Shown here: piece by piece, positions 6,931 to 10,446 of the stretch
How the letters are laid out: each line of letters begins with the position of its first letter
Position numbering within the stretch: position 1 is the first letter of the stretch
Source: Nitrosopumilus sp.
Lineage (GTDB): Archaea > Thermoproteota > Nitrososphaeria > Nitrososphaerales > Nitrosopumilaceae
Assembly (NCBI GenBank): GCA_965205675.1
Contig: OZ242186.1
Coordinates: 608,001-672,000, forward strand
DNA: 64,000 bases
Reading direction: 5' to 3'
Translations under genes and position numbers: made by a program
The notes under the pieces: generated by a model
Database searches by the model: none
The model's input: only the letters and a program-made list of their open reading frames with translations
Told to the model about the DNA's origin: nothing

Positions 6931-7536
6931 TCAAATTTTAAGATATCCTACTTTTGAAATTTTATTATTGATATTTCTTTGTAATACCACTCGTTCGTTT
7001 GTTTTTCTTCCTCCAAGCAATCTCTCGTTTACGTTTTCCATGAATTCATTAATCTGTTTAAAACAATTACCTATTTCTTTTCTTAATTCCTCATCAGAAC
7101 TATTTTCTTTTGTCCATAAAATTGAAGATGCCACTTCAAACATCCCTGTCATATTTGTTAGTAATAATCCATAATCTTTTTTTGCAAGTTTATTAAATTT
7201 ATGTGAATTAAGATCTTTTGATATATCTGAAAATATTTTTTTATTTTCTAAATTTTTTAATGATTGATTTATTTTAGATTCGTATGTAAAAATTATATTA
7301 TTTACAAATCCTATATTTTCTTCTGTAGAAAAATGATAATATTTTACATAATATGCATCATTTTTATATCCATGTTTTTCCACATGTCCTAACATTTCCA
7401 TTTTTTTTAATATTTCTTTTAGTTTTGAACGATTGAATCTCTTTTTGTTATTCAAACATTTTTTCCAAATGTCTCCAAAATAGTTTTTATCCTCATTCAT
7501 ACATTCTAAAATATAATTAATTGAAATTGTTTGCAT
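6931..7536 (-). CDS. Hypothetical protein, possible N-terminal winged helix
   Basis: 201-aa very AT-rich ORF; LKEILKKMEMLGHVEK resembles a wHTH. Confidence 0.6.
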   Translation of the reverse strand: MQTISINYILECMNEDKNYFGDIWKKCLNNKKRFNRSKLKEILKKMEMLGHVEKHGYKNDAYYVKYYHFSTEENIGFVNNIIFTYESKINQSLKNLENKKIFSDISKDLNSHKFNKLAKKDYGLLLTNMTGMFEVASSILWTKENSSDEELRKEIGNCFKQINEFMENVNERLLGGRKTNERVVLQRNINNKISKVGYLKI

Positions 7537-7719
7537 ATGTTTTCATTTATGGGGGAATTATTTATTGATGGTGACTCTATTTTTGAGGCTAATTTACACT
7601 CTTATCTGTTCATACTCAAAAACTGCCAAGTTTTGGGTATTTTGTAGATGCTTATTTTCTGCAAATGTAATGACTATTTCTAATATCATTTTCAATTAGA
7701 TTGTACTTTTTCATGAGGA

Positions 7720-8005
7720 AGAATTAGATGAAGAGGGATTGCGCAGATGTTTTGACAAGTTCACACCTAAGACTTGAATTGATTCAACAGGAATATGACT
7801 ATAATTATCCATGTGAATTGTTTTTATACATTTCCTCTCTTTCTATACATCAGGGCATGGCTTTCGCTAGAGAATGGTTTCAATCAAAAGATGGCAGACA
7901 TGTATCCATACGAGACTATTCTCTCAATGCTATCTTCATCCTAGTTAGGATTGTTCGCAGTTATTAGACGAGGCCTTGTCCCTCAATAATTACAACGCGA
8001 CTTGC
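7720..8005 (-). ncRNA. Putative IS110 bridge/seek RNA
   Basis: Several stems downstream of the transposase; internal loop at 7955-8000 whose strands match the flanks; RNA ends uncertain. Confidence 0.55.
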
Positions 8006-8009
8006 AGTC

Positions 8010-9125
8010 CTAACTATAATTTTGTACAAATTCTCTCCTCTCCTTTAACATCCAATAAATCACCCTCAGGATCTTTGATGCACCAGCTACTGCAGCTTTG
8101 GATGATCCTCTTTTCTTTTTAATGCGATTGTAAAATTTTGTAATGTCACTATCCTTGGCATGAATTGCATGAGTGTGTATGCATTCTGTTAGAACCCATC
8201 TCAATGTCATGCTTCCCCTTTTTGTTATTCTGCCATGGTGTATTGTATCTGCAGAGTTTCTAACTGATGGTACAACTCCTGCATATGCACACAGTTTGTG
8301 AGAATCATTGAATCTCTCAATATCTGCAATCTCTGATGCAATGACAAGCGAAGAATAATGCCCAATTCCCGGAATCGAGTTTATCAAAATTGCATCAGGA
8401 TTAACTTTTACAGCAGCATACACTTTGGAATTAATCTCTGCAATCTGTAAATTAAGGTGGCTGATTTGTTGCAAGAATCCGTCTATTCTGTAATCTCCTA
8501 GTGCCTTGAGTCTTCTGTTGTATGTTTCAGTGAATGTAACTCCTGGAATCCTGATTCCTTCCTGTAACAATATTCCATGAACTGAATTCTTGACAGATGT
8601 TCTCCATTGGATTAGTTTTTTCCTATATCTTACAAGCTGTCTTTGTTGTACAATCTTTTTGTCTGGAACATAACATGTGGCAATGTATCCTCCTCGTAAA
8701 AGATCTGCCAATATCTTGGCATCAATCTTGTCTGTTTTCTTTTTTGATGTAGCAATTGCCTTTGTCAAATATGGGTTTGAGAGTGTGACGTTTTTGTATC
8801 CCAAAGTATCTGTGAGAAATCGATACGTGTCATACCAGACTGATGAGGATTCCATTACAATATTTGCAGAAATTGGTATTTTTGCAAAATGCTTCCTGAT
8901 AGATTCATGAGTGTTATCCACTTTGTCATTTTGTAATACTTTGCCTGCATCATCCATTATTGCTACTTGAAGAAACTTCTTGTGCAGGTCAATGCCCACA
9001 AACATGCCTTTCTTTGGTTTCTTCCTAATCTGTTTGTTTGTAATCTTTTTTGGAGCCGAGTATTTACGAACCTTGGAACTAGATTCATTTTTTATGCTAT
9101 CTGATTTCCTTGCTTTCTTATTCAC
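8010..9125 (-). CDS. IS110 transposase (DEDD RuvC-like recombinase)
   Basis: GIDLHK, VMES, KTDKIDA acidic residues; SIPGIG and AGVVP...S C-domain; true start could be ATG 9005. Confidence 0.95.
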   Translation of the reverse strand: MNKKARKSDSIKNESSSKVRKYSAPKKITNKQIRKKPKKGMFVGIDLHKKFLQVAIMDDAGKVLQNDKVDNTHESIRKHFAKIPISANIVMESSSVWYDTYRFLTDTLGYKNVTLSNPYLTKAIATSKKKTDKIDAKILADLLRGGYIATCYVPDKKIVQQRQLVRYRKKLIQWRTSVKNSVHGILLQEGIRIPGVTFTETYNRRLKALGDYRIDGFLQQISHLNLQIAEINSKVYAAVKVNPDAILINSIPGIGHYSSLVIASEIADIERFNDSHKLCAYAGVVPSVRNSADTIHHGRITKRGSMTLRWVLTECIHTHAIHAKDSDITKFYNRIKKKRGSSKAAVAGASKILRVIYWMLKERREFVQNYS

Positions 9126-9285
9126 ATATAGTTATTCATATATAATTACAGCAAAATGCCAGCAACGATGATATCTGTTCATATTTAACAAAATCTCAAA
9201 GGACGTAACTTTTTTTCAAATTACATCTGATTTTATATCGTATATTGTGCTTGAAAAATTTCAGAAAAAAAAATCTTGATATTTT

Positions 9286-10446
9286 CTAATTTTTGCTTAT
9301 TTTGATATGTACTTTTTCACCTTTGTTTGAATTATTTTGATAAACTGTTCTGGTTTTGTATCCTTGTCTTTGAAGACATCCATCTAAAACTGATACCCAT
9401 GGTAATGAATGTCCACTGTTAAGTTTTGATTCTATTGTGATGTTTTTGGTATTTGCCTCAAAATTTACATGTCCTGAACACATAATTTGCATTACTGCAT
9501 CCATTATCTCAATTACGTCGTCTAGTGTTTTTGTTTTTAGATATATCCCATTTTTTTCTAATAATTTGAACATATCTGCTTCAGATTTTTTTGATATCAT
9601 TGCAGAATTTAGCAGATATGTTAGTCCTGACTCATTAACTATTTTAATAATTTTATAAATTTCCTGGGCTTCTGTCTTTGTCATATCTGCAAGTGCTTTT
9701 GTTTTTATTGCATTTTTCCAAATGTTTGCAAATATCTTTTCTTGATTTATTCCTAAAATCTCAGTTGATGAAAATATTGCCCCTTTTCCATTATCGCTGT
9801 TTACCATTAGTAATTCTGTTTCATCAAATATGAAACAGTTTTGTGTAATCTCTGATGCTCTAATTTCTGCTCTGTCTGGAATTGCTCTATATGATTCAGA
9901 ACAAATCTGTGATGGCAAAACAATGATTTTAACATCTAGATTACGACGTAATACTGATGCTAGTTGTTCTCTGCATTCTGCTAACAATCCAAATCCCCAT
10001 TGATCCGCCATAATTCTGATTGATGTTTTTGATCCTTCAATCATTGTTTGAAGTTGAGTTAATACATTATTTGCACTCAAATGGAAATATCTTTTTTCTT
10101 CAGATCCTCTTGTTCTCCTACTTTCTTCACTTGCCTTTTTTAAATTAGAAATTAGTGTATTCATTGCATTTACTTTGTTAATTTGTTCATGAATAATTCC
10201 ATCAAAAGCATCTTCTGGAGCAATTGCAGTACACATGATTGGCTTGCTTTTAGATATGATGACTAGTTTTTTATTTTCTAATTTTAGCAAGGTTGGATAG
10301 ATTTTTGTTCTAGGAATTTCTGAATAATATGCTAATTCACTAGCTGAAATTGTCCCTTTTGCAATTAGGGCCACGTATGCACGTGCTTCATATTTACTTA
10401 ATCCAAATTCTTCTAGACTAACTGTTAAAATATGTTCATTTACCAT
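9286..10446 (-). CDS. TrmB family transcriptional regulator
   Basis: FGLSKYEARAY..L and IPRTKIY wHTH plus effector domain. Confidence 0.9.
   Translation of the reverse strand: MVNEHILTVSLEEFGLSKYEARAYVALIAKGTISASELAYYSEIPRTKIYPTLLKLENKKLVIISKSKPIMCTAIAPEDAFDGIIHEQINKVNAMNTLISNLKKASEESRRTRGSEEKRYFHLSANNVLTQLQTMIEGSKTSIRIMADQWGFGLLAECREQLASVLRRNLDVKIIVLPSQICSESYRAIPDRAEIRASEITQNCFIFDETELLMVNSDNGKGAIFSSTEILGINQEKIFANIWKNAIKTKALADMTKTEAQEIYKIIKIVNESGLTYLLNSAMISKKSEADMFKLLEKNGIYLKTKTLDDVIEIMDAVMQIMCSGHVNFEANTKNITIESKLNSGHSLPWVSVLDGCLQRQGYKTRTVYQNNSNKGEKVHIKISKN

Follow-up and report, generated by a model that had tools for sequence, protein, structure and literature searches.

The locus lies in a 64,000-nucleotide stretch of DNA (the window) from a Nitrosopumilus-like archaeal genome, of which positions 9127 to 7809, read on the minus strand, apparently form an intact insertion sequence copy, here called IS-A (Table 1). 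The element contains a transposase gene ending in a stop codon at 8012-8010: only 2 nt are non-coding before the left-end GTG, and 201 nt from the stop codon (8010) to the right end (7809). The protein matches PF01548 (DEDD_Tnp_IS110, N-terminal; E 3.9e-25) and PF02371 (Transposase_20, C-terminal; E 1.8e-21), both above the curated cutoffs, as well as NF033542, 'IS110 family RNA-guided transposase', over residues 42-364 (228.8 bits for a cutoff of 140). The canonical IS110 domain begins around M41 (9005), from which the transposase measures 331 aa. It is preceded by a 40-aa lysine-rich N-terminal extension in open frame, which starts at base 3 of the element.

The transposase aligns to those of ISCro4 (E 4.8e-12) and IS621. 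The GID, ME and KTDxxDA motifs and the serine of the SG motif, which is SA here, align with the ISCro4 transposase (9t56), at positions which we take to be the catalytic ones of IS621. The catalytic residues of the IS621 recombinase are described in PMC11208158. The element codes for a DEDD/Ser recombinase of the IS110 family.

Table 1. Features of IS-A in the window (positions are those of the window)
Feature	Positions	Strand	Basis or remark
Insertion sequence proper	7809..9127	-	1319 bp; first bases ATGTGAAT, last bases ATTCACATGG
Left target flank (LT) AATAACT	9130..9136	-	Same as the end of the target-loop 3′ strand
Core AT, left copy	9128..9129	-	Copy comparison
Left inverted repeat ATGTGAAT	9120..9127	-	Reverse complement of 7818-7811
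Transposase ORF of 371 aa (GTG at 9125)	8010..9125	-	Pfam and NCBIfam matches
Putative target-binding loop	7955..8000	-	Conserved stems, hypervariable loops; permutation test; out-of-sample loci
Target loop, outer stem and inner hairpin	8000-7996 with 7959-7955; 7985-7969	-	
Target loop, 5′ guide and 3′ guide	7993-7986; 7968-7959	-	
Putative donor-binding loop	7896..7941	-	Two-stem geometry as in the target loop; tracks the right end
Donor loop, outer stem and inner hairpin	7941-7937 with 7900-7896; 7926-7911	-	
Donor loop, 5′ strand and 3′ strand	7936-7927; 7910-7901	-	
Conserved T-run just 3′ of the donor loop	7886..7889	-	Aligned variants
ATG in right end	7829..7831	-	Hypothetically in frame with the transposase ORF across the circle or tandem junction
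Right inverted repeat ATTCACAT (7818-7811) with 2-nt extension GG (7810-7809)	7809..7818	-	
Core AT, right copy	7807..7808	-	Copy comparison
Right target flank (RT) AATTATAG	7799..7806	-	Copy comparison

IS-A is present in ten copies in the genome, and the DNA common to them corresponds to window positions ~9136-7799 only. The span of the insertion sequence was obtained from this common DNA by subtracting the guide-matched flanks and the core. With ends at 9127 and 7809, the span of 7683-9144 proposed in a first-pass annotation of the locus is off by ~120 bp on the right and by 8-17 bp on the left, and the core is AT instead of the proposed TAT. Both junctions carry the dinucleotide AT in each of the ten IS-A copies and in every one of the 23 guide classes of related elements, and AT is the sole sequence that left and right junctions share across all classes; the right flanks of the L044 type carry T or G directly after it. 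In two relatives, GT replaces the AT core, and the donor loop is changed to match.

On the left side, AATAACT-AT precedes ATGTGAAT in five of the ten copies. The remaining five lie directly behind a sibling insertion sequence, the end of which, CACATGG-AT, takes the place of AATAACT-AT. These tandem junctions, which read CACATGG-AT-ATGTGAATAAG, put AATAACT outside the element. The right flank is AATTACA in eight copies and AATTATA in two. Homology of the flank to relatives starts again at 7796, and the DNA at 7683-7796 is single-copy flank, conserved in relatives that lack the insertion sequence. The depth of contigs from four public DNA runs jumps over 7786-9162: it amounts to thousands in bins from 7786 up and to 0-12 below (334 in one X3 bin), with loose ends or breaks at 7802-7805.

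A hairpin begins 10 nt past the transposase stop codon. On the minus strand, from 8000 to 7955, it reads UCGCGUU-GUAAUUAU-UGAGG(GACAAGG)CCUCG-UCUAAUAACU-GCGA, with the outer stem, internal loop and inner hairpin that the first-pass annotation described. That annotation assigned the loop strands to the wrong sides: the right flank belongs to the 5′ strand, the left flank to the 3′ strand. The 3′ loop strand repeats the sequence of the left flank, AATAACT (9136-9130), and the 5′ guide GUAAUUAU pairs with the core and right flank ATAATTAT (7808-7801), with one G-T wobble at 7801. Because the 5′ guide of IS-A covers the core, it is 2 nt out of register compared to most relatives.

Between the element ends lies a conserved structure, the loops of which covary with the flanks and the ends. 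Across 84 hairpins from Nitrosopumilaceae genomes, the stems are constant, and the loops change along with the flanks. Both junctions were found for 70 of these, the other 14 being excluded from the permutation test as one junction was not findable, and collapsing 18 redundant hairpins gave 52 non-redundant ones in 23 guide classes. The guide-flank score was 225 for matched pairs, against 135±8.8 for shuffled ones (maximum 173; 0 of 20,000 permutations), for copies that are not independent, because elements within one genome are related, a relatedness that the per-class permutation corrects in part only. The B-type left-end elements (L063, L069, L073, L091 and L095) were scored in a register possibly 8 nt off, which would have lowered the observed score.

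Left flanks follow the 3′ loop strand across the guide classes. The match is complete on the right flank (8/8) for L041, L043, L044, L060, L066 and L072, and on the left flank (10/10) for L031 and L042; single-copy variants fit their flanks poorly (L087 4/8, L069 4/8, L074 0/5 on the left). A covariation of loop and flanks in homologues, the check that had been suggested for this hairpin, is thus present over 23 guide classes, and the reading of positions 8000-7955 as the target-binding loop of a putative archaeal bridge RNA, encoded downstream of an IS110/IS1111-type transposase, is strongly supported.

A covariance model brought in 10 further loci, from other genera and families. As L120 has the same RNA as L101, a model-building sequence, it was left out of this out-of-sample set. 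On the right flank, the exact runs measured 4, 8, 3, 8, 4, 4, 10 and 4 nt (mismatched pairings: mean 3.1, maximum 5, n = 56), and on the left flank 7, 8, 5, 9 and 6 nt (mean 4.0, maximum 6, n = 20). Three of the eight right-flank runs (8, 8 and 10) and three of the five left-flank runs (7, 8 and 9) lie above every mismatched pairing, while five of the eight on the right reach 3-4 nt only. Two of these five fare better when wobble or one mismatch is allowed in a check by hand: L124 matches at 9/10 and L122 at 6/7. These loci back the target-loop covariation less strongly than the in-sample set.

The first-pass annotation had found no convincing donor loop; a candidate is present at 7941-7896. 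AUGGAU at 7909-7904, in its 3′ strand, is identical to the right end plus the core. The same identity is seen in all eight out-of-sample loci, in the states ATGGAT, ATAGAT and ATGGGT, and among 82 in-sample instances the G/A state fits the end in all except L102, which is unmatched, and L034, where one G is missing. The 5′ strand has AU and, next to it, AG or GG, a stretch that complements the core and the last two target bases. A search of the donor loop for a strand that would pair with the left end (RD, ATGTGAAT) gave none.

An alignment of 16 variants contains four helices, in which 99.1% of cells are paired; with slid partners, the figure is 31-49%. Compensatory changes occur at three pairs. 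At five pairs, 14-16 of the 16 sequences have G-U or U-G; hence, the structure would work on the transposase-sense strand only. The fold of the single sequence is not unusually stable (z = -0.75), and the support for the predicted structured RNA is comparative, thermodynamics excluded. At the T-run, 12 of the 16 variants in the alignment have CATCTTTTG or a close variant, a count in which L044 is without it and the aligned ranges of L034, L061B and L101 ended before it; the RNA may have its 3′ end at this T-run. No family of Rfam 15, which may hold no bridge RNA family, reached E = 0.3 in the non-coding region, and a scan of 7000-9800 with E up to 10 returned noise only. A search for RNA runs containing the element sequence turned up none.

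IS-A is very probably an IS1111-type element of the IS110 family with a 3′-encoded bridge/seekRNA that carries a target loop and a donor loop. The predicted structured RNA would be ~115 nt long, starting 10 nt past the stop codon and folding with two internal loops. The 3′ strand of the first loop repeats the DNA immediately left of the insertion and so would bind the bottom strand, and the 5′ strand, complementary to the DNA immediately on the right, would pair with the top strand. The specified target would consist of up to 10 nt ending in TAACY, followed by AT and a further stretch of up to 10 nt; for IS-A, on the element strand, this would be AATAACT, AT and AATTA(C/T)A. In the donor loop, the 3′ strand repeats the final 4 nt of the element together with AT, so that it would hold the donor (the circle junction), and the 5′ strand would act like the handshake guide of IS621. 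The sequence presumably acts as a recombinase-bound RNA, with recombination proceeding via a circle at the AT core.

RNA-guided recombination by IS110/IS1111 elements was established in bacteria in 2024. For the IS1111 seekRNA elements ISEc11, ISPa11 and ISKpn4, Siddiquee et al. 2024 (PMC11187229) likewise give a long non-coding region downstream of the transposase gene, a top-strand-complementary segment located 5′ of a bottom-strand-complementary one, and a specific target for each lineage. According to the same source, IS1111 elements have subterminal inverted repeats of 7-17 bp (8 bp here, the right one 2 nt in from the end) and transposases of 330-350 aa (331 aa from M41 here). The elements described here differ from them in the archaeal host (Nitrosopumilaceae), in the AT core (GT in two relatives), in a left target half that always ends in TAACY and in the 40-aa lysine-rich N-terminal extension; the motif G-V-V-P-x4-S-A also departs from the usual SG or TG. 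Strand order, downstream non-coding region and subterminal inverted repeats also agree with the IS1111 type as presented in PMC11208160. By layout, inverted repeats and strand order, the element would match the IS1111 type.

Like the predicted RNA of IS-A, the bridge RNA of IS621 (Durrant et al. 2024, PMC11208160) comprises a target and a donor loop, each reading both strands, with the donor loop over the right end and core, and the DEDD and Ser arrangement of the recombinase is shared as well. The donor-loop stretch complementary to the core and the last target bases resembles the IS621 handshake guide as it appears in Hiraizumi et al. 2024 (PMC11208158). Compared to what these sources give for IS621, the predicted RNA comes from the right end instead of the left one, the strand order is reversed, the core is AT instead of CT, and a left-end (RD) guide was not found in the donor loop. 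Moreover, the scaffold has no Rfam match.

The element appears to be a genuine archaeal representative of the established bridge/seekRNA system, with the known mechanism unchanged. Archaeal IS110 recombinases are known (Vaysset et al.). Full-text searches turned up no paper describing guide RNAs in elements from ammonia-oxidising archaea; the supplementary tables of the 2024 papers may list archaeal ISfinder predictions. One constant RNA scaffold is combined with at least 23 natural guide pairs, each fitting its own insertion sites, and these guide pairs, together with the three-state donor loop, would make up a natural reprogramming series in a mesophilic, AT-rich archaeal system. Such a system could help to account for the expansions of insertion sequences in some Nitrosopumilus genomes, as reported in PMC13343696, and adds material from archaea that bears on the link proposed for IS110 recombinases and Nop5.

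The target flanks could also be the outermost parts of the element, moving along with it, with both loops reading nothing but the element's own ends and a targeting that takes place otherwise. Near-identity of same-class flanks over ~16-20 bp, too long for chance recurrence in a 2 Mb genome, fits this reading, as does the outcome of the searches for an unoccupied target. In the genome itself, the IS-A target was found 0 times exactly and once with one mismatch, and the predicted empty site of the 15-copy L044 type had 0 matches in the genome carrying L044. A lax search with the predicted targets of 14 guide classes, over the loci of relatives and the genome, gave low-quality matches only. Four orthologous loci in relatives lack the insertion sequence, but the sequence at the insertion point has diverged (~70-75% identity), so that no identical target is readable there. 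The contigs of the four DNA runs gave no joints and hence showed no circle junction and no empty site. The target is reconstructed from occupied sites only. However, the conserved stretch of flank does not exceed the reach of the loop strands, ~10 nt on each side, and the DNA further out is unrelated between copies. Copies of the same class that are ~99% identical inside still differ in their flanks, by the presence or absence of a T after AT in L044 and by C or T in IS-A, and the right flanks of the L052 and L040 copies are unrelated. In the five tandems, the right end of a sibling replaces the left flank of IS-A, and AATAACT reappears upstream of that sibling. It can also be reasoned that a single loop with both arms fits a continuous duplex of left flank, core and right flank, and not a circle junction built from these two flanks. 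Flanks that move with the element are very improbable.

That the hairpins are a DNA element, a terminator or an mRNA stability element without any guide role is very improbable. Their position directly 3′ of the stop codon, with a T-run after them, would suit such a function, but a terminator needs neither hypervariable loop strands covarying with the DNA on either side of insertions nor a second loop tracking the element end through three states, and the G-U pairs of the stems suit one strand only. Next to nothing speaks for an element of ~7683-9144 with a TAT core and a loop matching TGTAATTAT at 9150-9142 and TATTAGA at 7685-7679, since the other nine copies cease to match at ~9136 and ~7799, the stretch 7683-7796 is single-copy DNA kept in relatives without the insertion sequence, and the contig depth collapses below 7786. 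Both short matches do occur where the first-pass annotation placed them on the minus strand; neither marks an element junction. TATTAGA lies in flank DNA common to relatives and occurs 15 times in the window for 14.6 expected from shuffles, hence a chance match. TGTAATTAT is somewhat over-represented (seven occurrences for 1.84 expected; 1 of 100 shuffles reaches seven), and its copy at 9150-9142 lies 6 nt outside the true left flank. The empty site TGTAAT-TAT-TAGA and the circle junction predicted from these matches are wrong because ends, core and target all differ.

The sibling element IS-B has a guide complementary to ATGTGAA, with which both IS-A and a further sibling, IS-C, begin at their left ends. 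IS-B adjoins an end of this type in 12 of 12 copies, nine in the same genome and three in another MAG (L061, L065 and L075). IS4321 and IS5075, of the IS1111 family, are said to target the terminal repeats of Tn21-family transposons (cited in PMC11208160), likewise a case of one mobile element aiming at the end of another. Unlike IS4321/IS5075, IS-B aims at close relatives within its own family, and head-to-tail tandems are the result.

An ATG at the junction, in frame and with no stop codon, was found in silico in 47 of 48 non-redundant elements. In the A, C, L044, L068 and L085 types, it stands nine codons ahead of the left-end GTG; the distance is 15 codons in the B type of the same genome. 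As this ATG would be in frame only at a circle or tandem junction, the full protein could arise only after excision or behind a sibling. It is conceivable, if rather doubtful, that the right-end ATG joins the open reading frame at such junctions only and that IS-B, landing head-to-tail before its siblings, supplies them with a start codon. The conserved right-end motif AAATGTATAAAAA was considered as an archaeal TATA box for a leaderless transcript; its spacing to the GTG is ~5 nt below the usual TATA-box distance.

IS-A, the IS1111-type element of the IS110 family present in the window, occurs as ten full copies in the source genome (G000; 2.01 Mb, 33.7% GC), and the DNA common to all ten covers only window ~9136-7799. 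On the right, every copy reads ...ATTCACATGG-AT-AATTA(C/T)A and diverges beyond. On the left, five copies show a variable flank followed by AATAACT-AT-ATGTGAATAAG; in the remaining five the sequence is GGGATTCACATGG-AT-ATGTGAATAAG, because they lie directly behind a copy of the related element IS-B. AATAACT is found again upstream of IS-B in the IS-B/IS-A tandems, and this tandem junction shows that it is flank and no part of the element. From these junctions, the element therefore extends from 9127 to 7809, with inverted repeats of 8 bp (ATGTGAAT on the left; ATTCACAT, then GG, on the right) and an AT core on both sides. The ends are independently supported: homology to relatives without the IS picks up again at 7796, on the right, and contigs from four public sequencing runs jump in depth at 7786-9162 and have loose ends at 7802-7805. 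The right end proposed in the first-pass annotation, 7683, falls 113 nt inside flank conserved in the IS-less relatives, and the TATTAGA read there as a flank match occurs at chance frequency (15 vs. 14.6 expected). None of the public runs found to contain the sequence is an RNA run. No circle junction was seen in the contigs of the four runs, and no unoccupied target site was found in the source genome, in the genome of the L044 type (a related locus) or by a search for the predicted targets of the guide classes. The IS splits a small open frame, roughly 45 codons long in four relatives and starting near 7795, the rest of which has an in-frame stop in the source genome and looks pseudogene-like (both by eye). 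The neighboring gene (9286-10446, minus strand) is a weak match to TrmB-like HTH regulators, with scores under the NCBIfam cutoffs.

Features of IS-A and its surroundings (window coordinates unless marked C1, the source genome)
Feature	Position	Strand	Remark
Transposase ORF	9125-8010	minus	371 aa
First (predicted target-binding) loop	8000-7955	minus	
Second (predicted donor) loop	7941-7896	minus	bounded by helices 3 and 4
Right-end ATG	7831-7829, joined with 9125	minus	in-silico circle junction
Interrupted small frame	7795-7810 and 9137-9285	plus	read by eye
IS-B tandems, examples	C1:930004-927335, 1667531-1664862, 1503840-1501171, 996441-999110, 953066-954612		source genome

Both IS110-family Pfam domains are present in the transposase, which is also recognized over residues 42-364 by the NCBIfam model 'IS110 family RNA-guided transposase' and aligns at the sequence level with the solved ISCro4 and IS621 transposases. 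The 77 related loci in public genomes belong to Nitrosopumilus, Cenarchaeum and other Nitrosopumilaceae or Nitrososphaerota MAGs, two rows of one record carrying 'bacterium' as their sole title, and the genes flanking the IS are common to twelve genomes of the same genus. The host of the element is an ammonia-oxidising archaeon. The ORF is intact in two of the ten IS-A copies (that of the window and C1:1108258-1109370), the remaining ones being frameshifted around codons 26-57. In intact elements of six diverged types, the transposase frame is already open at the third base of the left end. Of 48 non-redundant elements, 47 gain an in-frame ATG from the right end, with no stop between, when a circle junction is formed in silico. 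In most types, this ATG precedes the left-end GTG by 9 codons and follows a purine-rich AGGA/GAGG stretch. This arrangement suggests that the full protein would be made only from a circle or a tandem.

The hairpin that the first-pass annotation read just downstream of the gene was confirmed exactly: it begins 10 nt past the stop codon and consists of an outer stem and an inner hairpin with two loop strands between them. Once the ends are placed correctly, the 3' loop strand UCUAAUAACU terminates in the left flank AATAACT, and the 5' strand GUAAUUAU has ATAATTAC, the core plus the right flank, as its reverse complement; the right flank of the window copy, ATAATTAT, leaves one G-T wobble with this strand. 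The siblings IS-B and IS-C in the source genome have the same stems, with loops altered in step with their flanks: AAACAUAU and UUUUGUAACU for IS-C (flanks GTAACC-AT and AT-ATGT(G)TT), and UUCACAU and AAACUAUAACC for IS-B (right flank ATGTGAA). Over 58 instances in other genomes and 26 in the source genome, the stems CGCGUU/GCG and UGAGG/CCUCG hardly vary, and the loop strands form 23 classes. Classes scored against their own flanks reach 225, compared with 135±8.8 (maximum 173) for shuffled pairings, none of 20000 attaining 225. The conserved flank is no longer than the reach of the loop strands, about 10 nt per side. The first loop is thereby predicted to read the DNA flanking the insertion site.

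The first-pass annotation had instead matched the 5' strand to the identical TGTAATTAT at 9150-9142. This 9-mer is real (7 in the window vs. 1.84 expected; about 101 such 9-mers genome-wide). It lies 6 nt beyond the true left flank and is an inverted copy of the core plus the right half-site, which could have arisen by chance or be left over from an earlier event. In the public runs X2, X4 and X6, element-matching contigs diverge at window 7994, exactly where the 5' loop strand starts, into AAAACTCT, a guide belonging to another class, so the sampled communities contain more than one guide variant.

Four helices were identified with RNAalifold and pair counts, 99.1% of cells being paired vs. 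31-49% with the partners slid. Three pairs of these guide-RNA helices show compensatory changes, and several conserved G-U pairs are compatible with the transposase-sense strand only; the fold of a single sequence is unremarkable. Where no convincing donor loop had been recognized before, helices 3 and 4 bound an internal loop with the geometry of the first, whose 3' strand holds AUGGAU, identical to the element's final four bases followed by the core. Relatives ending in CACATAG carry AUAGAU in the RNA, a switch found in three groups (the L044 type, the C type and B-like elements of another MAG), and the more distant relatives with a GT core (L126 and L128, in genomes G105 and G153) have AUGGGU. 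In L126, this strand runs on 5 nt into the right target flank. The sole unmatched exception is L102, and L034 is one G short. By this agreement in sequence, the second loop is the predicted donor loop, reading the right end of the element. Its 5' strand has AU-AG with left target flanks ending in CT and AU-GG with those ending in CC, and L128 has AC at the core position; this matching of core and target resembles the handshake guide of IS621 (PMC11208158). A loop strand complementary to the left end ATGTGAAT was looked for, and none was found.

A covariance model of the guide RNA, made from 16 variants, gave 30 matches in the source genome, which represent at least three element types as well as mosaics. 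Among 150 other genomes sampled from the class, 15 gave matches, and these 15 belong to four families. Ten of the loci matched in these other genomes, outside the model-building set, formed an out-of-sample set. The donor loop agrees exactly with the right end in all eight of them with a findable right end. Left-flank runs are 7, 8, 5, 9 and 6 (mismatched 4.0, maximum 6), and right-flank exact runs 4, 8, 3, 8, 4, 4, 10 and 4 (mismatched mean 3.1, maximum 5). Five of these eight right-flank runs are short; two such cases improve with wobble or one mismatch when checked by hand (L124, 9/10; L122, 6/7).

In the IS1111 type described by Siddiquee et al. (PMC11187229), the non-coding region follows the gene, the inverted repeats are subterminal, and the seekRNA has its match to the top strand placed 5' of its match to the bottom strand. 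IS-A shares all of these features, including the strand order. Bridge RNAs were predicted in the right end of 93% of ISfinder IS1111 elements by Durrant et al. (PMC11208160), and Vaysset et al. (bioRxiv 10.1101/2024.06.21.599552) counted 662 archaeal IS110 recombinases. Full-text literature searches turned up no publication dealing with guide RNAs of Nitrosopumilus or Nitrososphaerota elements.

In 12 of 12 cases, 9 in the source genome and 3 in another MAG (L061, L065 and L075), IS-B lies head-to-tail in front of a sibling, its right flank being an IS-A or IS-C left end or a fragment of one. The 5' guide of IS-B, UUCACAU, complements ATGTGAA, the sequence with which IS-A and IS-C begin. As judged from base pairing, IS-B therefore appears to target the junction of its siblings, and this would account for the tandems. 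Mosaic elements (L063, L069, L073, L091, L095 and one near C1 754459 in the source genome) join a left end of the IS-B type (AACCATATGTGCC) to an RNA region of the IS-A type, with new guides, which suggests recombination between siblings.
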